Assembly (NCBI RefSeq): GCF_018336915.1
Contig: NZ_CP064923.1
Location: forward strand, 5,460,001-5,492,000
Direction of reading: 5' to 3'
From: Acaryochloris marina S15
GTDB taxonomy: Bacteria > Cyanobacteriota > Cyanobacteriia > Thermosynechococcales > Thermosynechococcaceae
DNA: 32,000 nucleotides
The notes below the pieces were generated by a model. That model was not told the origin of the DNA. It saw nothing but the letters and a program-made list of their open reading frames with translations, and did no database searches. Made by a program: the position numbers and the translations under genes. The stretch's first letter is position 1; each line of letters begins with the position of its first letter. Below are positions 6,993-26,608 of the stretch, piece after piece.

Positions 6993-7580
6993 ATGGATAA
7001 ATTAAGAAGAGTGGCTAAATTGTCGATTGTGGTTGGTGTTGTTTCCCTGTGCCCAGCAATTGTTACTCCTCAAGCAGCCTCTGCAGAGTCTATTTCTCCT
7101 ACGACTGCAGTAGGACAAGCCCCTCAGAATTACGGTATTGTTCGATCGACAGGCCTTAACACTCTTGAAATTAGACATTTGAGTGGTGGCTATCGGACCT
7201 ATTCTGTTTCTAGCGATTTAACGGCTTCTATGGCCCTGAGCCCAGGCGATTTTGTCGCTTACAATGCTGATGCCAGCGGTACGTTAACGCAACTTCAGCC
7301 CCCTAGAATTGCTCGCATCTTTGAAGGGACTATCTCTAACATTCAAGGGAATCAAATTACGGTTGTTGCTCCAGACGGTTCTTCTTTGACCACAACCGTT
7401 GCGGCTAACTCCATTAATCGACTAGAGCTATCTCCTGGAAAGGGCTTAAGTGTGACTCAATACGAGGGCCTGAGCGCTACTAAAGTATGCTGTATTTCTA
7501 AGTTTACGCAACAGCCTCCGGTGCTCCTACCCCCGGAACCCACTGCTGCACCGCCTCAACCCATCCCAGCCTTATGGTAG
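6993..7580 (+). CDS. Exported hypothetical protein (signal peptide, Pro-rich C-terminus)
   Basis: It has an ATG start and an N-terminal signal-like sequence (KLSIVVGVVSLCPAIVTPQAASA/ES). The C-terminus is PPVLLPPEPTAAPPQPIPALW. I recognise no family. Confidence 0.6.
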   Translation: MDKLRRVAKLSIVVGVVSLCPAIVTPQAASAESISPTTAVGQAPQNYGIVRSTGLNTLEIRHLSGGYRTYSVSSDLTASMALSPGDFVAYNADASGTLTQLQPPRIARIFEGTISNIQGNQITVVAPDGSSLTTTVAANSINRLELSPGKGLSVTQYEGLSATKVCCISKFTQQPPVLLPPEPTAAPPQPIPALW

Positions 7581-7683
7581 GCTCACTCCTCCTCAACGCC
7601 TCAAGCAACAGCTGAGGCCTGTCTGTCCATCAAGCTATAGCCCTTCTTCAGATTTACCCTGGGGGAGTAGGGAGTACAAGCAA

Positions 7684-8409
7684 ATGAACAAAATGAGTAG
7701 ACATCCATCTTCAACGATTGGCCTCGCCATTACCCTAGCAGGAGTCATGCAGACACTGCCCCTGCATGCAGCTCAGCTCAACTTTGACCAGCCAGAAACT
7801 GAGGGCAGTCTAACGACTCCTGAGGCCATTAGTAATTGTGCCCAAGAGCCGGATCCAAATTTAACGTCTCAGTCTAATCATGGGGTCTCTAATCCGTCCC
7901 AAACCCTCATCTTGGGACCGAATCTCATTGCTAATAATATTGCGACAGCGAATGATGCGGGTTTATTCACATCAGAGTCGCCCTTAGTTGCTCAATCCAT
8001 CGTAGATGATTGCTGTGTAGTTGGAGACACAGCCATTGGTGGCCCTTCTGCCTTTGAAGATGCTGCATTTTGCGGACTGGGTGGCGTACCTCCAGCAGGA
8101 GGCGCTGCACCTGGTGGCTTTCCTTTTCCTGTACTGGCCGCTTTAGCACCAGCAGCAGCAGTTCCCTTTATAGCAACGGGTGGAGATCCGGAACCGACTC
8201 CAACACCCACGCCGACTCCAACTCCAACTCCGACTCCAACACCCACGCCCACACCCACTCCAACACCCACGCCCACTCCAACACCCACTCCAACGCCGCC
8301 TCCTACCAAGCCTCCAGAGAAAGTACCTGAGCCTTCTACAATGGCTGGGTTACTCATTGGCGGTGCTATATTCGGCATCTATAAACGGAGAAAGAAATCA
8401 AAAGACTAG
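7684..8409 (+). CDS. PEP-CTERM sorting-domain exported protein with a (Thr-Pro)17 linker
   Basis: It has a signal peptide (IGLAITLAGVMQTLPLHAAQ). The C-terminal VPEPSTMAGLLIGGAIFGIYKRRKKSKD gives the PEP motif, a TM helix and a basic tail, which is the PEP-CTERM/exosortase sorting signal. A (TP)17 tract precedes it. Confidence 0.85.
   Translation: MNKMSRHPSSTIGLAITLAGVMQTLPLHAAQLNFDQPETEGSLTTPEAISNCAQEPDPNLTSQSNHGVSNPSQTLILGPNLIANNIATANDAGLFTSESPLVAQSIVDDCCVVGDTAIGGPSAFEDAAFCGLGGVPPAGGAAPGGFPFPVLAALAPAAAVPFIATGGDPEPTPTPTPTPTPTPTPTPTPTPTPTPTPTPTPTPTPPPTKPPEKVPEPSTMAGLLIGGAIFGIYKRRKKSKD
8197..8298 (+). repeat. In-frame hexanucleotide tandem repeat encoding (Thr-Pro)x17
   Basis: There are 17 consecutive ACN-CCN units with varied third positions. 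A higher-order 18-nt unit, actccaacacccacgccN, recurs at 8197, 8233 and 8257. The complementary strand reads (GV)n, which explains the spurious ORF at 7992..8378. Confidence 0.95.
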
Positions 8410-8436
8410 CGATTAAGGAAGCTAGCTTTACTCCTT

Positions 8437-8479
8437 AAACAAATAGCGACGGCTTTTGAAAGGCCGTCGCTATTTGTTT
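8437..8479. terminator. Bidirectional intrinsic-terminator-like hairpin between the PEP-CTERM gene and sqdB
   Basis: A perfect 17-bp stem pairs aaacaaatagcgacggc (8437-8453) with gccgtcgctatttgttt (8463-8479) around a 9-nt loop. A/T runs flank both sides. It lies between two convergent stop codons. Confidence 0.75.
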
Positions 8480-8507
8480 CAATTCAGTTAGATAACAGGT
8501 AATCTAT

Positions 8508-9671
8508 CTATTTACGCCATTTAGACGTACAGAGAATCTTGGAGTGATCACACCGATCTTTATACTTCGCTGCAATTTCAGTCACTTCTTTCATCAGGCC
8601 AACATCTAACTTAGTCGGTTGCAGACCTAAATCCATAAAGCACTTATTCTCAACATATAATTCGTTTTCCGCTGCCTCAGTTCTGGGATTCTCTAAGTGA
8701 TCAATCTTAGCCCCAGTAATGTCTGCAATGATTTTGGCTAGATCTCTCACACGGTGAGTTTCGGTCATTTGGTTAAAGATTTTGACCCGCTCTCCAGATT
8801 CAGGGGGATTCTCAACGGCCAGTTGAATACACTTAACCGTGTCCTGAATATGAATAAATGCTCGGGTCTGACCACCCGTACCATGCACCGTTAAGGGATG
8901 ACCAATGGCGGCCTGCATCAAAAATCGGTTCAGAACAGTACCGTAATCACCGTCATAATCAAAGCGATTAATCAGGCGTTCATCCTGCTTGGTCTCTTCT
9001 GTATTGGTTCCCCAGACCACACCTTGGTGTAAGTCGGTGACTCGAATCTTGTCATTCTTGTTGTAGTAGTAGAAGAAGAGCTGATCCTGAGTTTTGGTCA
9101 TGTGATAAACACTGCCCGGATCCGCAGGATAGAGGATTTGTTTTTCAACCACCTCACCAGTATCAATCACCACCTGAACGTCGAGATAGCCTTCAGGGAT
9201 CTTCATGCCGGCAGTACCGTAGCCGTAAACGCCCATGGTGCCGAGATGAACCACATGGATATCCAGGCCAGACTCCACAATGGCAGCTAAAACATTATTC
9301 GTAGCGTTGAGGTTGTTATTAACCGTATAACGCTTTTGCCGAGATGACTTCATGGAATACGGGGCAGCCCGCTGCTCAGCGAAATGTACCACCACGTCAG
9401 GGCGATAGGTGCACAACAGATTTAAGAGCCGATCATATTCCGCCGCAATATCGAAGTTATAGAACTGAATATGTTTGCCTGTTAAGTCTTGCCAGGTTTT
9501 CAGGCGAATCGAAATCGGACTAATGGGGGTCAACGAGTTGGTCTCTAACTCGTTATCAATGTTGCGCCTGGATAAATTGTCCACAATAACAACATCATGG
9601 CCAAGTTTGGATAGATGTAGCGCAGTTGGCCAGCCGCAGAACCCATCACCGCCCAATATTACAATGTTCAT
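8508..9671 (-). CDS. sqdB: UDP-sulfoquinovose synthase
   Basis: The N-terminus MNIVILGGDGFCGWPTALHLSKLGHDVVIVDNLSRRNIDNELETNSLTPI is the characteristic SqdB/SQD1 Rossmann start. Length (387 aa) and the SDR-like core (YHMTK) also fit. Confidence 0.92.
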   Translation of the reverse strand: MNIVILGGDGFCGWPTALHLSKLGHDVVIVDNLSRRNIDNELETNSLTPISPISIRLKTWQDLTGKHIQFYNFDIAAEYDRLLNLLCTYRPDVVVHFAEQRAAPYSMKSSRQKRYTVNNNLNATNNVLAAIVESGLDIHVVHLGTMGVYGYGTAGMKIPEGYLDVQVVIDTGEVVEKQILYPADPGSVYHMTKTQDQLFFYYYNKNDKIRVTDLHQGVVWGTNTEETKQDERLINRFDYDGDYGTVLNRFLMQAAIGHPLTVHGTGGQTRAFIHIQDTVKCIQLAVENPPESGERVKIFNQMTETHRVRDLAKIIADITGAKIDHLENPRTEAAENELYVENKCFMDLGLQPTKLDVGLMKEVTEIAAKYKDRCDHSKILCTSKWRK

Positions 9672-9933
9672 GCTTTGTCCCTAAACCGAATGTCTCAATT
9701 ACAGACGAGAATTCGAATCTTCAGAATTGCTAGTCAGTCAACGACACACCCTTCCCAGCAATCGTTAGATACGCTACTCGTTTACAACAGCTTCATAGTC
9801 TTTAAGAATATCTCAAATCGGGGACCATCACGATTTGGGGTTGTGACAATGATCAGATCGTATTTTGGTATAGAGCTGGGACAAGATAAGTCCTGAAAAT
9901 GAAGAGGTTCAGCTTCTAGTCGTCACTTCCACT

Positions 9934-11061
9934 TTAGGCTTTAGGCATAACGAAATTAGCATAGCTTAGTTCGTTGACTGCATTCCACTTATAAACCTTT
10001 TCGCGAAAGGCTTTCCAAGGTTCATAGATCTCTTTAAAGCTCGCTTCTTTCGCCGCATTCTCCTCATAGATCTCAAAAGAGATTTTCTGGGCAGCTTGAA
10101 GGATATCGTCACTATAGCGGGTGAGTTCCGTGCCCCCCGCCACCAGCTGAGAGATCACGTCACGATTTAAGGCATCATAGGCGGCCAACATATTGATATT
10201 GGCTTCGTAGGCAGCGGTTTTGAAGATTTCTTGATATTCCTTAGGCAATTTATCCCAAGCTTGGCGATTGACTAGGACATCTAAGGTGGGGCCAGGCTCC
10301 CACCAGCCGGGATAGTAGTAGTATTTTGCTGCTTTTTGCAAGCCGAGTTTCTGATCGTCGTAAGGGCCCACCCATTCAGCGGCATCGATGGTGTTCCGCT
10401 CTAAAGCCAGGAAAATATCCCCCCCTGGTAAGACTTGGACATTTACCCCTAACCGCCGCATCACTTCGCCTCCAAGGCCAGGGATCCGCATTTTGAGTCC
10501 CTTCAGATCGCTAGCCGTTTTGATTTGGCGTTTGAACCAGCCTCCCATTTGGGCTCCGGTGTTACCCGCGGGGAAGTTGATCACACCAAAGTCTGCATAG
10601 ACTTTTTGCATGGCTTCCAGGCCACCGCCATGATAGAGCCAGGCATTTTGTTGCTGAGCGGTAAGACCAAAGGGAACGGCAGTGGCAAAGCCCAGGGCGG
10701 GGTTTTTGCCAATGTAGTAGTAGCTGGCGGTATGGCCGCATTGAACGCTACCGGAGCGGACGGTGTCTAAAACTTCTAAAGGTGGGGCAATTTCGCCACC
10801 GGGTGACACCTGAATTTGAAACCGACCATCGGTCATGGCACTGACGCGATCGCTAATGGTTTTGGCACCACCATAAATGGTGTCTAAGGATTCTTGCCAA
10901 CTGGTGGCCATCCGCCAACGAACTCGGGGAAGGGAACCTGAGCTAGTGGTGGAGGAGCGTCGACAGGCCGCAAGGGTGGTGGTTGCGATCGCACCGACTG
11001 CCGAATTCCGTAATAACTTGCGTCGTTTCAACTTTTCGCTCCTGAACCCTACGTGTATCAT
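9934..11061 (-). CDS. TRAP transporter solute-binding protein (DctP-type, COG4663-like) with a twin-arginine signal
   Basis: Family-typical sequence includes [68 protein letters not shown] and [14 protein letters not shown] place the start at the ATG at 11061 ([33 protein letters not shown], Tat-like RR motif). The ORF track's start at 11121 would add 20 unsupported residues. Confidence 0.85.
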
Positions 11062-11282
11062 CTCGGCAACGGTTATGCAGACGGACTTTAGGGTAATCCG
11101 TAGGGAGATGACCGCCTCCAATCCTACCGATAAATGGATTCGCTACCGGAAAACGCAACAGAATGTTGTCATTCCCGCCCAATTCCACTGATTTTTTAGG
11201 CAGAAGAGTAAATAAAGACTGTCGCTTCATTCCAGACGAAGGGCATTCTAGGGCCATAAATAGACCCATCTCTGTTAGTCAG

Positions 11283-13619
11283 ATGTCGAAAAGTCGACGA
11301 TACCGACCATTTTTACTCTTATTTGCGATTGGCATATTTCTAGGATTCTTAACTGCCACCCATCCTAGGCTGATCGCCAATCCTCACCTGTTCCATGCCC
11401 AAGCCTACTGGACTCCAACCGTCACTCAGACGGTGGATCAAACCTCTTTGGCGGGCACCTGGGAATTTCAAGCTGACCCACAGCCGACCGCTGACAAGCT
11501 AGTGCTGCAACCGAGTGGACCCAATATTCCACCTATTCCCCAGGGCCAATGGCAAGAGATTGCAGTGCCTTCCAACTGGTACTTACAAGGGCAAGATATA
11601 TCGGGGGTGGTCTGGTATCGCCATCAGTTTCGCGCCAATGAGCGATGGCGTCAGAAGCTGACTCGTCTAGTGTTTTCGGGGGTCGATTACACCGCAGACG
11701 TTTGGCTCAATGGTCAGTATTTAGGCTTTCATGAGGGCTACTTTCAGCCCTTTTCCTTTGATGTGTCTAAGGCTCTGATGTTTACGGGCCAGAATGAATT
11801 ACTGGTGCGGGTCAATAGCCCTTTGGAGCCTCAAGGCCAGGATTGGTCCCTCCGCAAACGCTTAATTAAAGGCATTTTTAGTCACCACGATACCCGTCCA
11901 GGTGGAGCTTGGACCGATCGCGGCCAAGAGAAAAATACCGGAGGTATCTGGGCCCCGGTATTTTTGCAAGTCTCCGATCAGGTCGCCATTGAAACGATTC
12001 AAATCACCCCGGAGTTAGACGCCGACTACCAACAGGCCACGGCTAAGGTGGATCTAGTAGTCAATTCTCCAGGACTGGGCAAGACGAATCTTGATGCCCA
12101 TGTGCAGTTGGTGCCAGAGAATTTTTCGGGGTTACCCATTGGACCTATTCGCGTGAAACGCACCCTGCATCAAGGGGCTAATCACCTGAAGCTACAGATT
12201 CCTGTAGATGACCCGAAACTATGGTGGTCTTGGGAGCATGGAGACCCCAATTTATATCGCCTTACGGTGCAGTTGGCCGATGGCAGTCGACTGCTGGATA
12301 AAGCGTCAGATGTATTCGGATTTCGCACCATTCAGTTTGACCCGACCGAAAAAATCTGGCGACTGAATGGTCGCCGCCTATTTTTGCGAGGCACCAATTA
12401 CATTGCCACCCAGTGGCTCAGTGAAATGACGCCGGAGAAATACCAGACGGATATTGACCTGATGAAAGCGGCCAATATCAATACGGTACGAGTCCATGCC
12501 CATATCATCGGCAAGGATTTTTATAAGCTGTGCGATCGCAACGGCGTATTCATCTGGCAGGACTTTCCTTTGCAGTGGGGCTATGAAGATACTCCCCAAT
12601 TTCTCCAGGAAGCTACCCGCCAAGCCAAGGATATGATTGGCTACCTTTACAACCATCCTTCGATTCTGGCCTGGAGTCTGCATAATGAGCCGCCCTGGGA
12701 TGCGGACTGGATGAAGTACAAATACAAGACCTACGATCCAGAGCAAAATCGCGAGTTAGACGCCAAGCTATTGGCCAACCTGCAGGGAGAAGACCCCACC
12801 CGCCTCTTACATCCCGTGTCTACCGTCGGGGAGCATCCTTGGTTTGGTTGGTATTCCAACACCTTCTATAAATATGCAGAACCGACCACAGAAGCCATTA
12901 TTTCCGAATTTGGCGCTCAAGCTTTACCGCATCTAGAGTCCCTACGGCGCATCTTTACGGAAGACGAGCTATGGCCGGATACAGAAGCGGAATGGGACAA
13001 GTGGCTGTATCACAACTTTCAGCGCCATGAAACTTTCAATATTGCCAAGGTGCCCATGGGGAATACGACCCAGGAGTTTATCGATAATACCCAACAGTAT
13101 CAATCCCAACTGATTCAGTTTGCCGCCGAAGCCTATCGCCGCCAGCGTTATCAGCCCGTCTCATCGATTTTTCAATTTATGTTTGTGGAGGATTGGCCTT
13201 CTGTCAATTGGGGCATTGTTGATTACTGGCGACAGCCCAAACCCGGCCATGAGGCTCTGAAATGGGCCTACCAGCCCGTATTGCCTAGTATTGCTTGGCC
13301 TCAACTCACCTGGACTTTGGAGGAAACCGTAGAGCTGGAACTCTGGGCCATCAATGATTTATGGAAGGACTATCCAGAGGCAACCTATACCTATACTCTC
13401 CGCCAAGGCCAAAAACGCCTTAAATCTGGCAAAAGTAGGATTAATTTAACCGCAGATAGCAGCCAGCCTGTCGATAAGATTTTTTTTCAGCCCCAAAACT
13501 TGGGCAACTACACCGTCACAGCCACGATCAAAGATCGGCTAGGGACGGTATTAGGGGAAAACCAGTTTACGTTTGATGTGATTGATCGGGGGGATCAAAC
13601 CAATGAGTCGACGTCGTAA
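11283..13619 (+). CDS. Glycoside hydrolase family 2 protein with an N-terminal membrane anchor
   Basis: The GH2 sugar-binding region is present (VFSGVDYTADVWLNGQYLGFHEGYFQPFSFDVS). So is the TIM-barrel region (FLRGTNYI, NINTVRVHAH, ILAWSLHNEPPW with the NE acid/base motif). The likely start is the ATG at 11283 (MSKSRRYRPFLLLFAIGIFLGFL signal/anchor) rather than 11163. Confidence 0.85.
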   Translation: MSKSRRYRPFLLLFAIGIFLGFLTATHPRLIANPHLFHAQAYWTPTVTQTVDQTSLAGTWEFQADPQPTADKLVLQPSGPNIPPIPQGQWQEIAVPSNWYLQGQDISGVVWYRHQFRANERWRQKLTRLVFSGVDYTADVWLNGQYLGFHEGYFQPFSFDVSKALMFTGQNELLVRVNSPLEPQGQDWSLRKRLIKGIFSHHDTRPGGAWTDRGQEKNTGGIWAPVFLQVSDQVAIETIQITPELDADYQQATAKVDLVVNSPGLGKTNLDAHVQLVPENFSGLPIGPIRVKRTLHQGANHLKLQIPVDDPKLWWSWEHGDPNLYRLTVQLADGSRLLDKASDVFGFRTIQFDPTEKIWRLNGRRLFLRGTNYIATQWLSEMTPEKYQTDIDLMKAANINTVRVHAHIIGKDFYKLCDRNGVFIWQDFPLQWGYEDTPQFLQEATRQAKDMIGYLYNHPSILAWSLHNEPPWDADWMKYKYKTYDPEQNRELDAKLLANLQGEDPTRLLHPVSTVGEHPWFGWYSNTFYKYAEPTTEAIISEFGAQALPHLESLRRIFTEDELWPDTEAEWDKWLYHNFQRHETFNIAKVPMGNTTQEFIDNTQQYQSQLIQFAAEAYRRQRYQPVSSIFQFMFVEDWPSVNWGIVDYWRQPKPGHEALKWAYQPVLPSIAWPQLTWTLEETVELELWAINDLWKDYPEATYTYTLRQGQKRLKSGKSRINLTADSSQPVDKIFFQPQNLGNYTVTATIKDRLGTVLGENQFTFDVIDRGDQTNESTS

Positions 13620-16500: not shown

Positions 16501-18861
16501 TTAGGTTTCGTCGAAGGATAGGTTGGCGAAATGTTCTTGCAGGTAGCGATGGACGAAGACATAGCTGCCGCCTGTGCGATAGATAAATACGCAATCTTCG
16601 GCTTGTTGGAAAAAAGTGACGAAATTCCAAGGGATTTGCTTAGTTTGGCAGAGGACTAAACGCATTGACAAGTGTTGAGTACAGGGGTCTATTCCTTCGT
16701 TGTTGAGGATTAAAAAGAGTGGTAACACCATGAATAAGGCAATAATGAATCTCACTACAAATGGTTCTAGGAACAGAGGTAAAATATTTACCAGAGTAAA
16801 ACAAAGAACAATCATAAAAACAAGCGACACGATAACCTGTATCACTATCGTTTTTAAAGATCCCCAAATAACTTGATTAGGAAAAGTTCGATCTAGAATA
16901 TCGACTTTTAGCCCTCCAATCAGCTTGATACTTAGCCCTCCAATCAGCTTGATACTCTCCCCGAGAATCAATCCGAAAATTAGCCCGAGAATCAGGCCTC
17001 CAATCAGCCCGTAACTCTGCATGAAAAGCCCCCCGAAACTCAGCGCGTATGTCAGATAGCTTTCAAGGAGCTTCCAACTTCTTCGTCCCGTTTTGCGAGG
17101 CATTGGATTTTCTATAGCTTTTACTGAATACATCTTATCTCGCCTAACACTCAGCCCGAAAATCAATCCGATTAGCCCGAAAATTAGCCCAGAAATTAGT
17201 CCTCCAATTAGCCCAAAAACCCTTCCAATTAGCCCGAAAATTAGCCCGAGAATTAGCCCCCAAGCCAGCCCATAAAGCAGCCTATAAAGCCATTTAGTCC
17301 TTTCAGCTTCTACTAGATCCATCCCAACATACAGCCCTCCATACAGCCCCATTAGCCCTCCAAATAGCCCTCCGACAATACCTCCAAATAGCTCTCCGAC
17401 AATACCTCCAAATAGCCCGCAAATCAATCCGAAAATCAATCCGAAGATTAGCCCAAGAATCAGCCCAAAAAGCCATTTAGTCCTTGCTGTCTCCAGCCAA
17501 TCTTTGGGTTTCATTCGTTCGATCAAGAACTCTTTCCCCGCTCCCGTTTTCTTCGCTATTCCTTGCAGCCAGTGCAACATTTGTTGCTGTTCCGGCTCAG
17601 GTAAAGACCGCTGGGCAAACATTCGCTCAATATAACGATCAAACAGGAGTTTTAAGCGTTGGTCTTTAGGCAAATCCAGTAATTCCTGAGCTGGACGATT
17701 GCGATAGGCCAAAGTCAGAATCCATAGAAAAAGCGGCTTATTCACTAAGTCCCGTAAGGAGGGATCTGCCCCTAAAGCAGTTGCAATCCCTACTAACGCT
17801 TCCCCTCCCTCTTGTAAGTAATCATCTACCTGCTTTTCTGACAAAGGTTGAATATACACTGCTGCCTGAAACTCTTCTAAACGAGTGATCAAGGCTTGAT
17901 AGTCTACAATTCGGCAACACAGTGCGATTTCGATATTGCCAAACTTTTGCCGAAACTGATTCAATGCTTCCACACAAGCATCGCGATCTTGGGGTTTGAC
18001 TTCATCCAAACCATCCAGCAGCAAGGTCCATTTTTCCTGCTCCAGCCAAGTTTTTCCCACTTCTTTGCGAACTTGATATTGCTGCCATAACTCCTCCAGC
18101 AGCCACTGGGTAAAGGCCAGCGTTCCATCGTTAGGGAACTGCTGAGTGCCCCAAGCTGACAAATTCAACACAATCGGGATAGGCTGTTTTAGCTCTTGAA
18201 AATCAGTCGCTTCTAATAAATCTTGAGCCAGCTCCAAAAGCAAGGTTGTTTTCCCGGCACCCGGCTCCCCCAGCACCAACAACGTTCCGCCACCCCCCAA
18301 ATTAGCAAATCGATCCAACAGCCGCGTGCCAGGGGGCAACACCTGTTTCTCTTCTCCCGCCCTTTGCCACTCCATCCCCACCATCTCAGGCCGCTCTTCC
18401 AATCCCACTGCAATCCGAGCCTGCTCATACAGAGAGTTTTTCAAAACCCCATCAATCCATTTCACCCCCACCTTATCCATCAAGATTTGACGATTGTCTT
18501 GCCACCGGGCTTCATCCAATTCAGATGCTGTCAATATCGAGGGCTTGCGGACAAGCTGCACCACATCCACCACCATCATGCCCAGTAGCCCCACCAGCAC
18601 AACGCTATACAGCAAGCCAATCACTTTGGCAGTTGGGTTATCACTGCTAAAAGCAGCCATTGCCTCTGGAAAGACTCTGCCAATAAACCCCAACACGGCG
18701 GTTTCAACCACCAGCTTCAGCCATCGTCCCCATTTGGCTTTTTTCTGGTCAGCCGCAACTTGCCCCACCACCCAGCCCAACACCACCGGAATCAATACCG
18801 TGAACAGAGGCACCACAACCGTCTGAAAATTCGGATCACTCAGCAGTTTTTGAAGCATCAT
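16501..18861 (-). CDS. Membrane-embedded NACHT-family STAND NTPase with a C-terminal glycine-zipper transmembrane array
   Basis: Three N-terminal hydrophobic spans precede the NACHT core, which has Walker A LLVLGEPGAGKTTLLLELA and Walker B WTLLLDGLDEV. Then comes roughly 290 aa of GLIxGL/GGxxG hydrophobic repeats. The protein ends with FIYRTGGSYVFVHRYLQEHFA, a motif typical of the helical module after a NACHT core. I could not recognise any WD40, TPR or LRR repeats. Confidence 0.85.
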   Translation of the reverse strand: MMLQKLLSDPNFQTVVVPLFTVLIPVVLGWVVGQVAADQKKAKWGRWLKLVVETAVLGFIGRVFPEAMAAFSSDNPTAKVIGLLYSVVLVGLLGMMVVDVVQLVRKPSILTASELDEARWQDNRQILMDKVGVKWIDGVLKNSLYEQARIAVGLEERPEMVGMEWQRAGEEKQVLPPGTRLLDRFANLGGGGTLLVLGEPGAGKTTLLLELAQDLLEATDFQELKQPIPIVLNLSAWGTQQFPNDGTLAFTQWLLEELWQQYQVRKEVGKTWLEQEKWTLLLDGLDEVKPQDRDACVEALNQFRQKFGNIEIALCCRIVDYQALITRLEEFQAAVYIQPLSEKQVDDYLQEGGEALVGIATALGADPSLRDLVNKPLFLWILTLAYRNRPAQELLDLPKDQRLKLLFDRYIERMFAQRSLPEPEQQQMLHWLQGIAKKTGAGKEFLIERMKPKDWLETARTKWLFGLILGLIFGLIFGLICGLFGGIVGELFGGIVGGLFGGLMGLYGGLYVGMDLVEAERTKWLYRLLYGLAWGLILGLIFGLIGRVFGLIGGLISGLIFGLIGLIFGLSVRRDKMYSVKAIENPMPRKTGRRSWKLLESYLTYALSFGGLFMQSYGLIGGLILGLIFGLILGESIKLIGGLSIKLIGGLKVDILDRTFPNQVIWGSLKTIVIQVIVSLVFMIVLCFTLVNILPLFLEPFVVRFIIALFMVLPLFLILNNEGIDPCTQHLSMRLVLCQTKQIPWNFVTFFQQAEDCVFIYRTGGSYVFVHRYLQEHFANLSFDET
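16909..16956 (-). repeat. Perfect in-frame 24-nt tandem duplication inside the NACHT gene
   Basis: tagccctccaatcagcttgatact occurs twice back to back (16909-16932 and 16933-16956) with 24/24 identity. It encodes SIKLIGGL-SIKLIGGL. Confidence 0.95.
17155..17262 (-). repeat. Degenerate 12/9-nt periodic repeat encoding GLIF/GLI glycine-zipper units
   Basis: The plus strand reads agcccgaaaatc aatccgatt agcccgaaaatt agcccagaaatt agtcctccaatt agcccaaaaacc cttccaatt agcccgaaaatt agcccgagaatt. A 17-nt match, aaagccatttagtcctt, at 17286-17302 and 17469-17485 is 183 nt apart. That marks a duplicated 61-codon module beginning (E)RTKWL. Confidence 0.9.
17370..17417 (-). repeat. Second in-frame 24-nt tandem duplication (23/24 identical) inside the NACHT gene
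   Basis: ctccgacaatacctccaaatagcT (17370-17393) is followed by ctccgacaatacctccaaatagcC (17394-17417). Together they encode the GGIVGELF/GGIVGGLF units. Confidence 0.93.
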
Positions 18862-19192: not shown

Positions 19193-21097
19193 ATGCTCCA
19201 TTGTCTGAACCCCACTTGCAGCAATCCTCAAAACCCAGACGGGCGTGACACCTGTCAACAATGCGGACAGCCCCTGATCGGCATATTGCGCAATCGATAT
19301 CGCATCATCAAACCACTGGGACAAGGTGGATTCGGCATCACTTATCTGGCCGAAGATATCGAGAGATTTAACGAGACTTGCGTGGTTAAACAATTAGCCT
19401 ATCAAAACCCTGATAGCCTCGCATCGCAGCAAAAAGTCCAAGACCTCTTTACCCAAGAAGCCCAACAGCTCTTTCAGCTCGGCACCCATCCACAAATCCC
19501 CAACCTGCTAGCCTACTTTCATGAAACAGGGCATCAATATTTAGTACAAGAATTTATCGAAGGTCCCAATCTTCTGCAAGAGCTGAAAAGCAACGGGGTA
19601 TATAGTGAATCCAAGCTGAGACACTTTCTCCGTAGCATCTTGCCCGTTCTAGACTATATCCATACCCAAGGCGTCATTCATCGCGATCTCAAACCCCACA
19701 ACATCATGTATCGCCCCGCCGATGATCGCTATTTCATCATCGACTTTGGCGTCACCAAGCAAGTCAATACTCAAGACCTCACAGGCACTGTATTAGGCAG
19801 CGAAGGATACGCCGCCTTCGAACAACTCCAATATGGTCAGGCCCATCCCGCGAGTGATTTATATAGTTTGGGGGTGAGCTGTTTTCACTTCTTGACAGGC
19901 CATGATCCAAGATCACTCCAGCTTCAGGTCGGGTATTCATGGACCCAAAACTGGCAGCAACATCTCCCAAAGCCCCTCAGCCCTGAGCTCACCTCAGTTC
20001 TTGACACCCTGCTCCAACTGCAACTAGAGAATCGCTATACCTCTGTTGCAGCAGTGCTCAAAGATTTAGCCCTCACCCAAACTTCTCCCCCCAAAAATCA
20101 AGTCGTGGCTCACAGCCAGCCACCTGCCCATCCACAACCCAAGCTTGAGTTAGCTCCAACCACTGACCGGACCGCCGTTATCTGGGAACCAACGAGCGAT
20201 ATCTCGACTTCATCCGCCTCTGCTGCGTTACACCCACCCTTACAAACCACACAGTTTGAAGTAGTAACCCTCGATGTAAGGGGGCAAACTCATTTGGTTC
20301 AGACCCTTACCGCCCAACAATATCTCGAAGAACTAGGAGACGGCATTTCCCTCTCGATGCTCGTTATCCCGGCCAGAAGTTTCTTCATGGGTTCATCGTC
20401 AACTGAAGTATCAAGACGCAAATTTGAAGGACCTCAACATCAAGTCTCAGTTGCCTCCTTCTACATGGGCCAATTCCTGATCACTCAAGCTCAATGGCAA
20501 GCCATAGCGGCTCTTCCCACCATCAACCATGACCTCTCCCCAGATCCATCGCAGTTCAAAGGAGCCGATCATCCAGTTGAGAGTATTTCCTGGCTAGATG
20601 CTGTCGAATGTTGTGACCGACTCACCCGCAAATTCAATCGACTCTATCGTCTACCCAGTGAAGCAGAGTGGGAATATGCTTGCCGAGCCAACACCACCAC
20701 CCCCTTCCACTGTGGCGAGACCCTCATCTCTGATCATGCTAATTTTCATGGCATGAAAACCTATCGATCCGCCCCTAGAGGTCAGTATCGCAACCAAACC
20801 ACTCCTGTAGGCAGTTTTCAAGCCAATGCTTTTGGCCTCCACGACATGCATGGCAATGTCTGGGAATGGTGCGCCGATGATTGGCATGCCAACTATCAAG
20901 GGGCTCCCATAGATGGCAGCATTTGGTTCACCCCAAACAACGATGCCATCGCAGGCAAGGCTCCCCATCCTTGGAGAGGTGGGTCTTGGTATGATGCCCC
21001 CGACAGCTGTCGGGCTGCCTATCGAACCTTTGCGGATGCCGACTTTAAGAGCAGTAATTTAGGCTTTCGAGTGGTCTCTCCAGTTCTATCCCCCTAA
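19193..21097 (+). CDS. Soluble Ser/Thr protein kinase with an N-terminal 4-Cys zinc ribbon and a C-terminal FGE-sulfatase (SUMF1-like) domain
   Basis: The zinc ribbon is CLNPTCSNPQNPDGRDTCQQCG. Hanks kinase motifs are intact: GQGGFG, VVKQL, HRDLKPHN (codons 163-170) and DFG (codons 184-186). A Pro-rich linker leads to the FGE-sulfatase fold (VIPARSFFMGS, HPVESISW, PSEAEWEYACR, HDMHGNVWEWC, RGGSW, SNLGFRVV). No TM segment is present. Confidence 0.9.
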   Translation: MLHCLNPTCSNPQNPDGRDTCQQCGQPLIGILRNRYRIIKPLGQGGFGITYLAEDIERFNETCVVKQLAYQNPDSLASQQKVQDLFTQEAQQLFQLGTHPQIPNLLAYFHETGHQYLVQEFIEGPNLLQELKSNGVYSESKLRHFLRSILPVLDYIHTQGVIHRDLKPHNIMYRPADDRYFIIDFGVTKQVNTQDLTGTVLGSEGYAAFEQLQYGQAHPASDLYSLGVSCFHFLTGHDPRSLQLQVGYSWTQNWQQHLPKPLSPELTSVLDTLLQLQLENRYTSVAAVLKDLALTQTSPPKNQVVAHSQPPAHPQPKLELAPTTDRTAVIWEPTSDISTSSASAALHPPLQTTQFEVVTLDVRGQTHLVQTLTAQQYLEELGDGISLSMLVIPARSFFMGSSSTEVSRRKFEGPQHQVSVASFYMGQFLITQAQWQAIAALPTINHDLSPDPSQFKGADHPVESISWLDAVECCDRLTRKFNRLYRLPSEAEWEYACRANTTTPFHCGETLISDHANFHGMKTYRSAPRGQYRNQTTPVGSFQANAFGLHDMHGNVWEWCADDWHANYQGAPIDGSIWFTPNNDAIAGKAPHPWRGGSWYDAPDSCRAAYRTFADADFKSSNLGFRVVSPVLSP

Positions 21098-21400: not shown

Positions 21401-23278
21401 ATGGTTTGTTGTCTCAATCCCAAGTGTGAGAAACCCCTCAACCCAGACACCAGTAAGTTTTGTCAACAGTGTGGTACAAAACTAACCCTGTTACGGCGAC
21501 GGTTTAAGATGGTTCGTCTGTTGGGTAAAGGTATGTTTGGCCATACGTATCTTGCAGAAGATCGAGATAATTTGCAGGAGCCCTGCATTGTCAAACAGCT
21601 AATTTGTCAAGCCCAGGGAACGGATGCCAGCCAGACGGTTGTTGAACCATTTTTACAAGAGGCAGAACAACTCAGACGGCTGAAAAAAAACCAACATATT
21701 CCCAGCATTTTAGCTTACTTCGAAGAAAATTATATTCCCTATTTAGTCCAGGAATATATCGACGGCCAAGACTTGCAACAAGTCATTGAGAATCAGGGTG
21801 CCTTCAGCGAGAATCAAGTCCGGGCCTTGTTACTAGAGCTCTTGCCGGTCTTACAGACGATCCATGATCAAGGGGTGATTCATCGGGACTTGAAACCCGC
21901 TCACATCATGCGTCAGCATTCAGATAGCAAGCTGATTCTGGTGGGGTTTTGTGTCTCCAAGCAACTCAGTTTATCTCAGTTACAGCAAACCGATAGCGTT
22001 CGAGAGAATACCAGCTACGCACCACCAGAAGTCTTTGCCGTCGATAAAGCTCGTCCCGGCAGCGATCTCTATAGCCTAGGTGCCACCTGCGTCCATTTAT
22101 TAACGGGAGTTGCTCCCCATGCTTTACCCATCCAAGGTGGAGAAGTATGGGTCGAACACTGGCAACAGCATCTTCCCCAGCCCTTGAGTGCTGAATTAAA
22201 GCCTGTGCTGGAGAAGTTACTCCGCACAGACCTAGCGGAGCGATATACTTCCGCCTTAGAAGTGCTCAGAGAAGTGCGCGGTTTTGCCAAAGCAACCTCC
22301 CGCCCCCTGCCCAAAATACCCGCCGTTCGAGCAGCCCAGACCTCTGGTCAGACAGCCCCACAAGCAGTCAGATCTCAGCCCAAGGCCCCGGCCCAGCCCA
22401 CCAAACTGCAGCCTAAACCCAAATCTTCCATCCCTTCCTTCCAAGCGGAAGTCGCCCAGGTCGATACCAAAGGCCAAGTGGTGAGTCGCCAATTTCATCC
22501 GATTGGCCACATCACCGAGGATCTCGGTAAGGATGTCACCCTGGAGTTGGCGCAGATTCCGGCAGGCCGCTTTTCCATGGGCTCGCCCCCTAGCGAGCAG
22601 CATCGGCAGCAGACCGAAAGTCCCCAGCATATTGTGTCTATCCCAGAATTTTATTTAAGTCGCTATCCCATCACTCAGGTCCAATGGCGTTTGGTGGCCG
22701 CCTTACCCGCAGTCAAGCGCGAACTGGATGATTCTCCGTCTCACTTTACGGGCGATGATCGCCCTGTCGAAAGCGTCTCTTGGTTTGATGTGGTCGAATT
22801 CTGTAACCGACTCTCCTTGTTAACTGGGAAGGACTATCACCTCCCTAGTGAATCTGCTTGGGAATATTCCTGCCGCGCCGCTAGTAACACCCCCTTTGCC
22901 TTTGGCGAAACCCTCAACACAGAACTGGCCAACTATGATGGCACAGCAGCCTATGGAGCTGGACCGACAGGCAATTTTCGCCAGCAAACCACCCGAGTGG
23001 GCAAATTCCCGGCCAATCCCTATGGGTTATCCGATATGCATGGCAATGTCTGGGAATGGTGTGCAGACCATTGGCATGGCAACTATGGCAATGCCCCAGT
23101 AGACGGCAGCGTCTGGCAAGATCAATACTTCTTTGCCTGTGTACTGAGGGGAGGGGCCTGGAATACCCAAGCCGCGAGCTGTCGTTCCGCCTCTCGCATT
23201 TGGGAAGCGGCCTCTGAACAAAGCAATCATATTGGGTTTCGGGTTGCTTGTACCTTAGTGAAACCAGCCAGCTCATAA
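21401..23278 (+). CDS. Paralogous zinc-ribbon / kinase-like / FGE-sulfatase protein; kinase domain predicted catalytically degenerate
   Basis: It has the same architecture as the upstream gene: CLNPKCEKPLNPDTSKFCQQCG, GKGMFG, IVKQL, and an FGE fold with IPAGRFSMGS, RPVESVSW, PSESAWEYSCR, SDMHGNVWEWC, RGGAW and NHIGFRVA. However, the catalytic loop reads HRDLKPAH, so Asn is replaced by His at codon 168. The DFG motif reads GFC at codons 182-184. Confidence 0.88.
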   Translation: MVCCLNPKCEKPLNPDTSKFCQQCGTKLTLLRRRFKMVRLLGKGMFGHTYLAEDRDNLQEPCIVKQLICQAQGTDASQTVVEPFLQEAEQLRRLKKNQHIPSILAYFEENYIPYLVQEYIDGQDLQQVIENQGAFSENQVRALLLELLPVLQTIHDQGVIHRDLKPAHIMRQHSDSKLILVGFCVSKQLSLSQLQQTDSVRENTSYAPPEVFAVDKARPGSDLYSLGATCVHLLTGVAPHALPIQGGEVWVEHWQQHLPQPLSAELKPVLEKLLRTDLAERYTSALEVLREVRGFAKATSRPLPKIPAVRAAQTSGQTAPQAVRSQPKAPAQPTKLQPKPKSSIPSFQAEVAQVDTKGQVVSRQFHPIGHITEDLGKDVTLELAQIPAGRFSMGSPPSEQHRQQTESPQHIVSIPEFYLSRYPITQVQWRLVAALPAVKRELDDSPSHFTGDDRPVESVSWFDVVEFCNRLSLLTGKDYHLPSESAWEYSCRAASNTPFAFGETLNTELANYDGTAAYGAGPTGNFRQQTTRVGKFPANPYGLSDMHGNVWEWCADHWHGNYGNAPVDGSVWQDQYFFACVLRGGAWNTQAASCRSASRIWEAASEQSNHIGFRVACTLVKPASS

Positions 23279-23355
23279 GCGCTTCAAGTCAGAGGGCAAA
23301 AAAACCGCAATAATAATGTGAATGCTCATTTTCATAAGGTGCAACATCCTGCCGG

Positions 23356-26097
23356 ATGGAAGTTCTCTCCGTTACGCTGAAAAACTTTAAGGCCCATCGC
23401 GATCGCTACTATGAATTCCGACCGGGGGCCAATGCCATTTGTGGTGAAAATGGGTCAGGGAAGACCAGCATCCTAGAAGCCATTGCCTGGGTTTTATTTG
23501 ATCACAGCGAGTACAAGCGAGCCGAACTAATCACCGTCGGGGCCAAAAGTGCCCAAGCCATCGTCAGCTTTATATCCCACTTGGATGGGCGAATCTACGA
23601 GGTGCGTCGCTGTACTAGTCGGGGCTATGAGGTTCACGACCCCCAGCTCAACCGCAAGCTAGAACTGAAAAAACTCGATGATGTCCGCTGCTGGCTCTGT
23701 GAACATTTGGGGGTGGGGGTCCACACGGAACTGGCCAAATTGTTTGCAGAAACCATTGGCATTCCCCAGGGCACCTTTACAGTGGATTTTCTCAAATCAG
23801 CGGGCGATCGCAAAAAGGTATTCGATCCCATTCTGAAGGTGGAAGAGTATAAACAGGCTTACGATCAGGCCCAAAAATTAACCAGTTATGCCCAGGCCCA
23901 GGTCCAACAGCTAGAGCAAAAATTACAAAGCTACGACCAGCAACTCGAAGGCTGGGAAGCGCTTAAGCAACAGAAGCTAGAGCTAGCTAAAACCTTGACT
24001 CAGCAGATGGCCCAGATGCAAACCCTGGCTCAGCAGTTGGGTGAGATTCGGACTGAACTCAAGGATTTAAAGACCCAAGACCAAGCCATCCAAACCCTAG
24101 ACAAACAGGTCCAGCATCTCCAAACCCAATGGACCAGTAAACAGGAAATTCTCCAGCTCTTAGAGGAGAATTGGCAGCAGGCAGACCAAGCCGTCCAGAT
24201 TTGTCGTCAGCATCGGCCTCAATTTCAGGCCTATCAAGCGGCCCAAGAGACCCTCAAGGCCCTCGCTCAACAACAAAAACAACGACAGCAACTGCTGCAA
24301 GAACGCGATCGCATCCAAAATACCCTCCGCGATCAGCAAGTCCTACTCTCCCAAAACCAAGGCCAACTCTCCACCTTTGCCAAGATGGACGCAGAACTCC
24401 AGGACTGGCAAACCAAAGTTCCGCAACAACAGCAGCTCGACCAAGAAAAGACCACTTGCCAACAGGCCCTCCAAACCCTAGTCTCCGACCAAAAACACCT
24501 ACAGCGACTGCAAGAGCAAATCCACAAACAGCAGCAGAGTTGGGAAACCCTCAGCCAGACCATTCGCCAACTGGTCGCCCTAGAACCACAAGTTCAGGCC
24601 ATTCCTAACTTCGAAGCCCAGCAGCAGAAGATTCAAGAACGGCTGGGACGAATTGCCGCCGCCCAGCAATTTGCCACAGAATTACAGACATTACTGACCG
24701 AGGCTGAACCCCAACAACAGCACTATCAGCAGCAAGTAGACACAGCGAAAGATCTGCTCAGTCGTTCCACCCTGAACCCAGCCCAGACCACTCAACTCGC
24801 CACCATTTTGGACCAAGGGGCTGCCCTCACCCACCAGATTATTCAGCAGCTCCAAACAGCTTTTGCCGACATTATTGATCCCCAGACCGTCACCAACCTC
24901 AAGCAACAGCTTCGGCAGATAAAAACCCAACTCAAAGCCGCCCAAAAAGCCCAAACCCAATGGTTGATGCTAGAGGCCCAACAGCATCAGCTAACGGAGC
25001 TAGAGCAAGGGATGACGTCACTGCAGCAAGAGTGCGATCGCATCCAGGTCACCCTCAACCAAGAGCCCCAGCTCCAGAGCCAACTAGCACAGCTCAATAC
25101 CCAGCTAACGGCACTCAGCGACCCCCAGGGCCATGTCCGCATCTTGCAGCAGCAGCTTCAAGGAGCCACCCAGCTAGAAGCAGAGATCACTCGCCTTCAA
25201 CAGGCCTGTCAAGGTCATCAGCAGTCCCTCACAACCTTTGAAACCCAGGTCGAAGCCTTGGGAGATCTAGAAGCCCAAGTCGATGCCCAACAGCAGATCC
25301 AGCAAGAGCATCAGGAGGTGTATCAGCGCTATTTACGCCATCGGAATCAGGCCAATACCTTTAAAGACCTAGATCAGCAACGCCAAGGTGCGATCGCTAC
25401 CCAAACCCAACTCCAAACCCAGTTAACGGGTGCTCAAGCCCAATGGCAGGAAAAGCTCAAAGATCATAATCCTGAGCGGCTAGCTGAAGTGAGTCACACC
25501 TATGAACAATTGCAGCGACACCATGACCAGCTCCAGGGGGGACTAGCCCCCCAACAGGCTCAGCTGCAATATCTCGATCAGCAATTGGAAGCCAAGCAAG
25601 CCCTCGCCCAAGAGCGCGATCAGATCTGGGTGACCTTAGAGGATAAGCGCCAAATCTCACAGTTCGTTATCGATGCTCGCAACGTCTACAAGCAAAGCGG
25701 TCCTCGAATCACCAAATTTTACCTGACAGAAATTTCTTGGGAGGCGGATCGGCTCTATCGGGAGCTGCTCGATCGGCCTGATGTGGCTTTACAGTGGACT
25801 GAAGATTACGAAATTCAGGTACAAGAGCAGGGCCATTGGCGTAGCTTCAAAAGCCTGTCGGGGGGAGAGCAGATGTGTGCTGCTTTAGCCGTGCGCCTAG
25901 CCTTGCTGAAAGTCTTAGTCGATATCAATATTGCGTTTTTCGACGAGCCCACAACGAACATGGATGAACTGCGTCGTCGACAGTTGGCCGAAGCCTTGGG
26001 GCATCTCAAATCCTTCCATCAGCTGTTTGTGATCAGTCATGACGACACTTTTGAGAGCGTTACAGAAAATATTATTCGGGTAGAGAGAGCGAGTTAA
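23356..26097 (+). CDS. Rad50/SbcC-like SMC-family ABC ATPase with a very long Gln-rich coiled coil
   Basis: The N-terminal head is LKNFKAHRD...ICGENGSGKTSILEAI (Walker A), followed by about 600 aa of Q-rich heptad-like sequence. The C-terminal head has SLSGGEQMCAALAVRLAL (signature), IAFFDEPTTNMD (Walker B/D-loop) and FVISHDD (H-loop). There is no CxxC in the coiled-coil region and no nuclease gene next to it. Confidence 0.85.
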   Translation: MEVLSVTLKNFKAHRDRYYEFRPGANAICGENGSGKTSILEAIAWVLFDHSEYKRAELITVGAKSAQAIVSFISHLDGRIYEVRRCTSRGYEVHDPQLNRKLELKKLDDVRCWLCEHLGVGVHTELAKLFAETIGIPQGTFTVDFLKSAGDRKKVFDPILKVEEYKQAYDQAQKLTSYAQAQVQQLEQKLQSYDQQLEGWEALKQQKLELAKTLTQQMAQMQTLAQQLGEIRTELKDLKTQDQAIQTLDKQVQHLQTQWTSKQEILQLLEENWQQADQAVQICRQHRPQFQAYQAAQETLKALAQQQKQRQQLLQERDRIQNTLRDQQVLLSQNQGQLSTFAKMDAELQDWQTKVPQQQQLDQEKTTCQQALQTLVSDQKHLQRLQEQIHKQQQSWETLSQTIRQLVALEPQVQAIPNFEAQQQKIQERLGRIAAAQQFATELQTLLTEAEPQQQHYQQQVDTAKDLLSRSTLNPAQTTQLATILDQGAALTHQIIQQLQTAFADIIDPQTVTNLKQQLRQIKTQLKAAQKAQTQWLMLEAQQHQLTELEQGMTSLQQECDRIQVTLNQEPQLQSQLAQLNTQLTALSDPQGHVRILQQQLQGATQLEAEITRLQQACQGHQQSLTTFETQVEALGDLEAQVDAQQQIQQEHQEVYQRYLRHRNQANTFKDLDQQRQGAIATQTQLQTQLTGAQAQWQEKLKDHNPERLAEVSHTYEQLQRHHDQLQGGLAPQQAQLQYLDQQLEAKQALAQERDQIWVTLEDKRQISQFVIDARNVYKQSGPRITKFYLTEISWEADRLYRELLDRPDVALQWTEDYEIQVQEQGHWRSFKSLSGGEQMCAALAVRLALLKVLVDINIAFFDEPTTNMDELRRRQLAEALGHLKSFHQLFVISHDDTFESVTENIIRVERAS

Positions 26098-26116: not shown

Positions 26117-26608
26117 TTAAGGGGTGGTCCACTTTGTCACAGGTGCCGCAATTTGCTGCTGTTTTTGGTAGGCCGCCACTTCCTGCTGGCACATGCTCAG
26201 ACTGTTCTGCTCGGTGTTACCCACGGATTTGATGTGATGCATTTTTGTGAGGGGGACTTCAACTTCTAGGGCATTTTCGTGGGGTGCGCCCAAAGATAAT
26301 ACTTCCAAACGCTGATTCTTGGCCGTGCCCGTAAAACAGCTGAACTCGGATTGGGGATAGAAAAACGCACCCGTTACTTTCTGACCCTGCTTTTTGAACA
26401 CGACATAACCCTGACCGATTTGATTGGCTTGGTCAGAATCACCATAGAGATACATGCCATCAGCAAGGGGCGTCGAAGGCCCAGAGGCAGCAATATTCGT
26501 GGGTTCTGCAACAGCAAGGCCCGTGCTTCCTAAGACGAGGGCACCACTAACTGCCAGAACTGCTTTGATAGAACCAGAGAGAATTGAAGCTTGGGGAAAT
26601 TTTTTCAT
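26117..26608 (-). CDS. Small exported hypothetical protein
   Basis: This is a 163-aa ORF with a signal-peptide-like N-terminus (MKKFPQASILSGSIKAVLAVSGALVLGSTGLAVA/EP). I recognise no family. Confidence 0.6.
   Translation of the reverse strand: MKKFPQASILSGSIKAVLAVSGALVLGSTGLAVAEPTNIAASGPSTPLADGMYLYGDSDQANQIGQGYVVFKKQGQKVTGAFFYPQSEFSCFTGTAKNQRLEVLSLGAPHENALEVEVPLTKMHHIKSVGNTEQNSLSMCQQEVAAYQKQQQIAAPVTKWTTP

Follow-up and report, generated by a model that had tools for sequence, protein, structure and literature searches.

A Rad50-type ATPase without a zinc hook in Acaryochloris marina and its probable Mre11-type partner

We analysed a stretch of 32,000 nucleotides from Acaryochloris marina S15 (contig NZ_CP064923.1, positions 5,460,001 to 5,492,000), hereafter the window, and concentrated on one complete forward-strand gene (23356..26097) that encodes an ATPase of the Rad50/SbcC type. 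A sequence-only reading had described the protein as lacking both a zinc hook and a nuclease partner, and as an orphan that might serve as a defence sensor. We found that the hook is indeed missing, and that a nuclease of the Mre11 type, which is probably its partner, is encoded elsewhere on the same chromosome. The gene is native and housekeeping-like, neither an orphan nor a defence candidate. Its features are as follows (coordinates are those of the window).

23356..26097, + strand: hookless Rad50-type ATPase gene, complete including the stop codon, ATG start, 913 amino acids (aa) (open reading frame (ORF) list and translation)
23356..23838, + strand: N-terminal ATP-binding cassette (ABC) head half, residues 1-161 (motifs; matches Pyrococcus furiosus Rad50 residues 3-195)
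23443-23466, + strand: Walker A GENGSGKT, residues 30-37 (read from the translation)
23689..23700, + strand: CWLC, residues 112-115, the sole CxxC of the protein, in the N-terminal head and no hook (alignment)
23761-23772, + strand: Q-loop IPQG, residues 136-139 (read from the translation)
23839..24762, + strand: ascending coiled-coil arm, residues 162-469 (AlphaFold2 helices 162-196, 200-352, 355-407 and 416-469)
24202..24204, + strand: Cys283, a lone cysteine in the ascending arm (C in 64/64 sequences)
24640..24696, + strand: apex-proximal motif RLGRIAAAQQFATELQTLL, residues 429-447, consensus SRIxAAxQFxxEL (alignments)
24763..24783, + strand: apex loop RSTLNPA, residues 470-476, the zinc-hook position of relatives (AlphaFold2 loop; indels; hhalign)
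24784..25767, + strand: descending coiled-coil arm, residues 477-804 (AlphaFold2 helices and breaks)
25120-25131, + strand: conserved break DPQG in the descending arm, residues 589-592 (AlphaFold2)
25768..26094, + strand: C-terminal ABC head half, residues 805-913 (matches Methanocaldococcus jannaschii Rad50 residues 235-360)
25855-25869, + strand: ABC signature LSGGE, residues 834-838 (read from the translation)
25930-25965, + strand: Walker B and D-loop IAFFDEPTTNMD, residues 859-870 (read from the translation)
26032-26046, + strand: H-loop ISHDD, residues 893-897 (read from the translation)

Walker A, Q-loop, signature, Walker B, D-loop and H-loop are all present and form the split ABC head expected of Rad50/SbcC proteins; translation places the motifs that had been picked out earlier (GENGSGKT, the FFDEPTTNMD region and ISHDD) exactly where they had been reported. 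Conservation, indels and cysteines were counted in a family alignment of 64 sequences, to which all such counts below refer unless another set is named. G30, G33, G35, K36, T37 and Q138 of the N-terminal head are invariant (64/64 sequences), and so are columns S835-E838, F861-T866, D870 and H895-D897 of the C-terminal head. Pfam matches to the ATPase were SMC_N, AAA_23 and SbcC_Walker_B. The top curated model was archaeal Rad50 (PRK03918, 206 bits), with the bacterial SbcC model TIGR00618 reaching only 70 bits, and SMC models matched only Walker A or coiled-coil stretches. Searched against PDB sequences, both head halves gave M. jannaschii and P. furiosus Rad50 as top matches; Escherichia coli SbcC was not among the matches of the ATPase.

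Between the head halves, an AlphaFold2 model built from the 64-sequence alignment (mean predicted local distance difference test score, pLDDT, 77.6) is helical from residue 162 to 804, i.e. ~640 helical residues, with short breaks and a single apical loop at 470-474. The chain folds back at this loop and keeps a heptad-like hydrophobic spacing, as in the long antiparallel intramolecular coil of Rad50/SbcC; modelling, which had been proposed as a check, thus put the apex at 470-474. The ascending arm shows a conserved 3-4 hydrophobic spacing and zero indels. In the descending arm the model gives further conserved breaks at 634-668 and at GGL (728-730), and L587, P590, G728 and L730 are invariant, Y659 and A666 nearly so. 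Coil indels are confined to residues 473-476, within the least conserved stretch of the protein. No condensin-type SMC hinge was found in the model, in agreement with the sequence-only reading: the centre is purely helical with a 5-residue loop and no beta-containing hinge. A whole-chain Foldseek search with the same model returned indiscriminate matches to long coils of the SMC type and was uninformative.

The zinc hook is a hallmark of Rad50 and SbcC, generally held to be universal and essential, and in yeast its removal mimics the loss of Rad50. The window protein gave no match to the Pfam domain Rad50_zn_hook, and its only CxxC, CWLC, is confined to Acaryochloris members and missing from the other 58/64 sequences. 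The cysteines of its coil (283, 368, 560 and 618) are all isolated, no CxxC is conserved in the coil across the 64 family members, and in many of these the total cysteine count is just four. We also sought conserved His/Asp/Glu, CxxC or CPxLxxxC near the apex and found none. Alignment, Pfam and profile comparison therefore uphold the earlier observations that the hook is missing, that the coil cysteines stand alone and that the one CxxC (reported around residue 111) lies in the N-terminal head. A cryptic hook emerging on proper alignment had been named as part of the grounds for abandoning that view; none appeared in our alignments, hhalign included.

The ATPase is 99% identical to proteins of A. 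marina strains, and a search for homologs gave more than 880. The best 120 measure 801-928 aa, nearly all of them 908-928, and every organism-named one among these 120 is cyanobacterial. A genome scan located at least 506 loci encoding a relative. HMMER, run exhaustively against 1.84 billion cluster representatives, returned 882 matches at E <= 1e-30, and we sorted hook classes among the best 150 of these. About 41 are full-length hookless proteins (34-57% identity) with no apical cysteine motif; they comprise a 904-947-aa class, one member of 1061 aa and a class of 1170-1198 aa. The next ~94 (27-34% identity, mostly aligned end to end) bear an apical cysteine motif, which is CP[VILMT]C in 52 of them (near residue 460 of ~902) and CPxLxxxC, at mid-length, in the other 42. 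The apical cysteines are invariant inside each of the two classes.

The position of the lost hook was located by profile-profile alignment (hhalign) of the hookless family against the CPxC class, which spans 885 columns at a probability of 100 and an E-value of 3e-169. In it, CPVC 460-463 of the CPxC class falls on residues 475-478 of the window protein, with flanking conserved leucines in register (L468 of the window protein with L452, L491 with L467). The hook of the relatives thus aligns to a variable loop, and their most conserved coil residues are the most variable ones of the hookless clade. A MAFFT alignment placed the hook near residue 447; we rejected this placement in favour of the profile-profile alignment and of the positional equivalence at 475-478.

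The hook-bearing bacterial relatives are themselves uncharacterised (CP[VILMT]C, ~902 aa, and CPxLxxxC, ~886 or 1018 aa; e.g. P0324, P0402 and P0311). They share with the window protein the head motifs AFFDEPTxNxD and QLFVISHDDTFE and the coil landmarks LGDPR and AYxxYL, and differ from it in keeping invariant apex cysteines: the cyanobacterial clade is without these and has gained SRIxAAxQFxxEL and the invariant Cys283. Four of the five hook-bearing relatives examined adjoin mre11 or nurA/herA (loci L091, L092 and L093). For instance, the P0324 gene starts 3 bp downstream of a 460-aa Mre11 gene, the P0402 gene sits inside a mre11-rad50-nurA-DUF8166-herA cluster, and nurA directly follows the P0311 gene. 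Members of the CPxC class, to which the window protein is homologous over its full length (885 aligned columns), adjoin mre11, one of them also nurA/herA. Compared end to end with the A. marina nuclease described below, the Mre11 proteins encoded beside hook-bearing relatives show 34-36% identity.

The CPxLxxxC class (P0311-P0321, P0320, P0338 and others; L093 2574-5654) carries an invariant G-x-C-P-x-L-x-x-x-C-x-N, a C-x6-C spacing that is not the canonical CxxC. From its sequence it looks like a variant metal hook, and we know of no description of such a C-x6-C variant.

A nuclease partner was looked for next to the ATPase gene and beyond the window. tblastn detected no Metallophos/Mre11-like sequence anywhere in the 32,000-nt window, as had been said of the immediate neighbours. 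A gene of the sbcD/mre11 kind, for which a genome-wide search had been recommended, does exist on the chromosome: in A. marina record AP026075.1 (6,415,507 bp) a Mre11-type gene lies at ~140,060-141,343 and the ATPase gene at ~6,156,999-6,159,740, ~396 kb apart if the record is circular. The verdict of no nuclease partner is not supported, for there is a Mre11-type gene on the same chromosome and, in Thermostichales, in the same operon. The A. marina nuclease is WP_012163632 and relatives (P0126/P0246); automated annotation names the two cyanobacterial families "SbcC" and "SbcD".

By curated models and PDB sequences, this Mre11-like protein is nearest to P. furiosus Mre11. The residues of its five phosphoesterase motifs (D9, H11, D51, N86, H87, H176, H210 and H212) are invariant in the family. 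The AlphaFold2 model (pLDDT 86.7) consists of a nuclease domain, a capping domain, a low-confidence linker and three C-terminal helices (361-415), and all top 50 Foldseek matches in PDB are Mre11 or SbcD, the first being M. jannaschii Mre11 from a Mre11-Rad50 complex. The C-terminal helices are conserved, with K394 and Y407 invariant. Judged by its motifs, its modelled cap and its putative C-terminal Rad50-binding helices, the distant nuclease of A. marina fits Mre11/SbcD; a candidate for the partner expected of a Rad50/SbcC protein is present in the genome.

Both families co-occur in every genome pair checked, some of the pairs being matched by named organism or by contigs of equal length, and the Mre11-like family is spread across cyanobacteria as widely as the ATPase family. 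In Altericista both genes are in the genome, at ~1.68 and 4.97 Mb. ORFs were called and clustered in 85 loci for a survey of neighbourhoods, and a Metallophos gene (~420-440 aa) was found within 10 kb of the ATPase gene in a Trichocoleus locus (L004) and in one from Acaryochloris sp. (L011). The A. marina Mre11-like gene itself (L086-L088) has a divergent neighbour of 733 aa (3301-5502, - strand) with no Pfam match.

Linkage is direct in the 1170-1198-aa hookless class, the class of Thermostichus/Thermostichales and of other early-branching cyanobacteria related to them. Synechococcus sp. Nb3U1 (L095) has the following order.

3725-4999: mre11
5001-8597: rad50-like gene
8587-9780: nurA
9777-10370: DUF8166 gene
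10370-12094: herA/DUF87 gene

At a second locus (L094) mre11 overlaps the rad50-like gene (5001-8573) by 4 bp. In this gene arrangement the Thermostichales hookless ATPase is translationally coupled to mre11, and Thermostichales Mre11 is 52-53% identical over its full length to the A. marina nuclease. The operon is thus intact in Thermostichales and dispersed in Acaryochloris. No CxxC or CPxLxxxC is conserved among 30 long-arm members of the Thermostichales class. Since both the hooked relatives and the hookless Thermostichales orthologs keep the operon, the hook would have been lost before the operon broke up, which is the simplest reading of these sequences.

The Thermostichales-type proteins (L095 5001-8597 and L094 5001-8573; P0296, P0297 and P0305) are ~270 aa longer than the window protein. 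Inspected by eye, the extra ~270 aa consist of duplicated modules, "AxxxCxxxRxxY" in the N-arm and "LGDPR...AYxxYL" in the C-arm. This suggests that N-arm and C-arm modules pair in the antiparallel coil and that the arms lengthen in matched units.

Pieces of the operon may survive elsewhere. Four loci (L004, 17420-19195, - strand; L036; L042; L059) have a HAS-barrel/DUF87 (HerA-like) gene within a few kb of the Rad50-like gene, ~4-6 kb downstream in the last three; the encoded proteins share only ~25-30% identity with the HerA of the L095 operon. In L029 a DUF8166 homolog (2-496) is situated ~9.5 kb upstream of the Rad50-like gene. Such scattered HerA-like and DUF8166 genes may be remnants of the ancestral operon.

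From these data, the window gene very likely encodes the Rad50 subunit of a cyanobacterial, archaeal-type Mre11-Rad50 machine for DNA-end processing, ancestrally encoded as mre11-rad50-nurA-DUF8166-herA. As read from the alignments, the zinc hook has been lost throughout the sampled cyanobacterial family and arm length is strictly fixed. The sequence-only reading had stated that an SbcD gene linked to orthologs elsewhere, together with a cryptic hook, would turn this protein into an ordinary SbcC displaced from its partner. The linkage does exist, in the mre11-rad50-nurA-DUF8166-herA operon of Thermostichales, and the protein is a Rad50 displaced from its partner; it is not an ordinary one, as its apex has no hook.

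Several observations weigh against this interpretation. The feature that defines Rad50/SbcC, the zinc hook, is absent, and the ATPase scores far under the curated Rad50 and SbcC cut-offs (PRK03918 206/700, PRK01156 139/847, TIGR00618 70/478.5). In the neighbourhood survey mre11 lies within 10 kb of the ATPase gene in just 2/85 loci, and the two genes are unlinked in most cyanobacteria, so that a joint function in Acaryochloris is deduced from orthology and co-occurrence. One of the hook-bearing relatives (L090) has no mre11 within 6 kb. The direction of change, a loss, is deduced from the presence of the hook in archaeal, eukaryotic and other bacterial Rad50/SbcC proteins. Finally, the metal-free apex contact considered below is proposed from conservation and hydrophobic patterns only.

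We next considered how a hookless Rad50 could work. By analogy with the established Mre11-Rad50/SbcCD mechanism, two Rad50 heads would engage on ATP and clamp DNA ends, and a Mre11 dimer would cut, its C-terminal helices anchoring it at the foot of the Rad50 coil; NurA-HerA, if present, would resect. Our best guess, made with low confidence, is that the ends of the arms are joined without metal. The apex-proximal segments 429-447 and 485-507 might pack against each other as a helix bundle a little below the tip, or the arms might zip together.

Three features of the coil, all peculiar to the hookless clade, bear on this proposal: the motif SRIxAAxQFxxEL, the helix that follows the apex, and Cys283. 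SRIxAAxQFxxEL is the most conserved coil patch (smoothed conservation 0.68-0.70) and stands ~30 residues below the arm tip. A435, F439 and L443 are at least 90% conserved, and R432 is conserved in a second, smaller family alignment of 19 sequences. The strict pattern AA[RQ]QFxxEL recurs at a fixed position in 20 of the 30 long-arm members, and the hook-bearing profile has gaps opposite the motif, which has no counterpart there and is clade-specific. The post-apex helix 485-507 has more conserved hydrophobic residues than the remaining coil. We consider it slightly better than an even bet that the sampled family, from Thermostichales to Acaryochloris, uses Mre11-Rad50 without a hook, with either a metal-free apex (SRIxAAxQFxxEL and the next helix, perhaps with Cys283) or unjoined tips. 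A tie between hook loss and zinc economy, or the polyploid genomes of cyanobacteria, is pure speculation.

Cys283 sits in A-V-x-x-C-x-x-x-R-x-x-Y-x-x-Y, opposite the broken, conserved C-arm segment 634-668, in a region of low model confidence (pLDDT ~60-63 over residues 281-310); the hook-bearing class has a residue other than Cys at the aligned position (hhalign). A role as cross-arm contact or redox site is conceivable. We dropped a Cys283-His652-His662 metal site, as the histidines are conserved only in 46/64 and 45/64 sequences.

Among known systems, archaeal Rad50 and Mre11 are the nearest characterised relatives. P. furiosus and M. jannaschii Rad50 share with the window protein the split ABC head and the long antiparallel coil, and for the A. 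marina nuclease the closest counterpart is P. furiosus Mre11 by sequence and M. jannaschii Mre11 by fold. The archaeal gene order mre11-rad50-nurA-herA is matched in the Thermostichales orthologs. The differences are also clear: the window protein has no CxxC hook and scores 206 vs 700 bits, and the Acaryochloris genes are spread over the chromosome. E. coli SbcCD is a complex of the same type, in which an SMC-like ATPase is joined by a nuclease of the Mre11 family, yet it is much more distant. E. coli SbcC has a CxxC hook, and sbcD and sbcC form an operon.

The ATPase could instead act by itself as an SMC-like protein that organises or segregates chromosomes, an Mre11-independent role in the manner of ClsN/ASRP taken on after hook loss and the break-up of the operon; the nuclease would then work on its own or have other partners. 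Such a role would suit the lack of linkage in 83/85 loci, the degenerate apex, and the faster evolution of the ATPase, whose identity across comparable taxa is 41-50% against 60-70% for the nuclease. The match to the ASRP model is weak, at 75.8 bits against a cut-off of 300, and archaeal ASRPs carry a zinc hook (PMC9389158), which the window protein does not. An organiser freed from Mre11 would also leave unexplained that no genome pair examined has one family without the other, that the Mre11-like protein keeps its C-terminal helices with K394 and Y407 invariant, that hookless Thermostichales orthologs are translationally coupled to mre11, and that the arm length and coil landmarks of Mre11-linked relatives are strictly kept. 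On balance we regard an independent organiser as unlikely. More improbable still is a counterpart of the Bacillus SbcE/SbcF (YhaN/YhaO) pair. A precomputed match to PF13514 (AAA_27), which we take to be the YhaN-type domain, occurs in a minority of family members, and the window protein has none at E <= 0.01. B. subtilis SbcE does provide a precedent, being a repair ATPase of the SbcC type that lacks CxxC and has an Mre11/SbcD-like nuclease as its partner, but it has a unique hydrophobic central domain (PMC2811018). Compared by this description, a distinct, hydrophobic and conserved centre stands against the variable helical hairpin found here, and the adjacent yhaO gene against the absence of any adjacent nuclease gene. 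The full-length homology of the window protein is instead to hook-bearing Rad50 linked to NurA/HerA, and head and nuclease are nearest to archaeal Rad50 and Mre11.

An anti-phage sensor ATPase, either like Lamassu LmuB or as part of a MADS-like island with the upstream kinases and a NACHT protein, was the possibility raised by the sequence-only reading. PADLOC does report LmuB (E 1.5e-30) and mad3 (2.7e-28) for the ATPase, the upstream kinases match mad6 and PD-T4-6, the NACHT protein matches mad8 weakly, and the gap to the kinase gene is short. These matches, however, cover generic head, coil or kinase domains, and MADS6 scores 128 against a cut-off of 460. The likeness to LmuB and other defence SMC-like ATPases lies in the hinge-less SMC-like form; unlike them, the window gene is broadly conserved, much as housekeeping genes are, lacks an effector partner and descends from a repair operon. 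Across the 85 loci we saw neither the conserved co-location with an effector nor the patchy island distribution expected of LmuB/mad3, and there is no effector of the LmuA type. Spread widely among cyanobacteria, the ATPase is nearly constant in length and its gene carries native HIP1 sites; its neighbours vary by genus, the kinase being upstream in Acaryochloris only; and both its nearest non-hookless relatives and its early-branching orthologs lie in mre11/nurA/herA repair operons. We thus rejected a defence island (Lamassu, MADS or PD-T4-6) on distribution, variable context and repair-operon ancestry, and give a sensor role very little chance. The picture of an orphan fails on the same grounds and on the co-occurrence with Mre11.

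If the Mre11-Rad50 reading is true, the metal-free apex or unjoined tips of these proteins are a natural experiment on the purpose of the hook. A large and ancient lineage without both hook cysteines, with Mre11 and with a fixed arm length, offers a direct way to ask whether the tips need joining and, should they be joined, how this could work without metal. PMC6969161 reports that artificial dimerisers or an SMC hinge can replace the hook. In the searchable literature we found no description of a hookless cyanobacterial Rad50, which is no proof of novelty. The result also corrects the annotation of proteins now labelled "AAA family ATPase", "SMC family ATPase" or "SbcC", and points to a Mre11-Rad50(-NurA-HerA) module of archaeal type in cyanobacteria, kept together as an operon in Thermostichales and split up in later lineages. 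The window gene is to be struck from the list of defence candidates.

The native character of the gene is also seen in its composition. It contains five sites of the highly iterated palindrome HIP1 (GCGATCGC; 23399, 23804, 24305, 25034 and 25390), the number that had been given earlier together with the impression of a native gene, and the window as a whole has 15 against 0.34 expected by chance. With 2.7 kb, or 8.6% of the window, the gene holds 5/15 of the sites (span 23399-25397); the neighbouring kinase and NACHT genes (16.5-23.3 kb) have zero.

The surroundings of the gene turned out much as described before: a kinase/FGE gene upstream across a 77-bp gap with no visible terminator, and a convergent gene downstream (ORF 26117-26608). 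The spacer, which is outside the system, is listed here.

23279..23355, + strand: 77-bp spacer to the upstream kinase/FGE gene, which ends at 23278

A scan of the flanks for promoter- or terminator-like sites gave nothing above shuffled expectation, and none in the 77-bp spacer. The kinase/FGE gene is directly upstream in Acaryochloris loci only (the window, L001 and L011); the neighbour is ruvA in Altericista and a cobalamin adenosyltransferase gene in Trichocoleus. Across the 85 loci there is no conserved neighbour save a small secreted-protein gene, convergent downstream in 19/85. In the window this is 26117-26608 (- strand), which encodes 163 aa with a predicted signal peptide and has no Pfam, NCBIfam or PADLOC match. 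Its homologs at the 19 loci span many cyanobacterial genera, and one (L004, 14912-15466, - strand) is directly beside the Mre11-like gene. Despite this recurrence we rejected the small protein as a functional partner, there being no evident functional link.

A metagenome contig with a hook-bearing relative (L090, 1-14655) carries a block of Rad50-like, Ribonuc_L-PSP, L28 and SurA-like genes twice in tandem, either a real duplication or an assembly artefact. Upstream of the window gene, two tandem paralogs (19193-21097 and 21401-23278, both + strand) combine a Ser/Thr kinase and an FGE-sulfatase domain with a zinc-ribbon prefix of four cysteines. Over the N-terminal ~300 residues they match PADLOC PD-T4-6 very strongly (E 1e-91 to 1e-98); the match to mad6 is weaker. 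Divergent from them, on the upstream side, is a NACHT NTPase gene (16501-18861, - strand), and the paralogs and the NACHT gene may form a defence or signalling cluster of their own, unrelated to the Rad50 gene.

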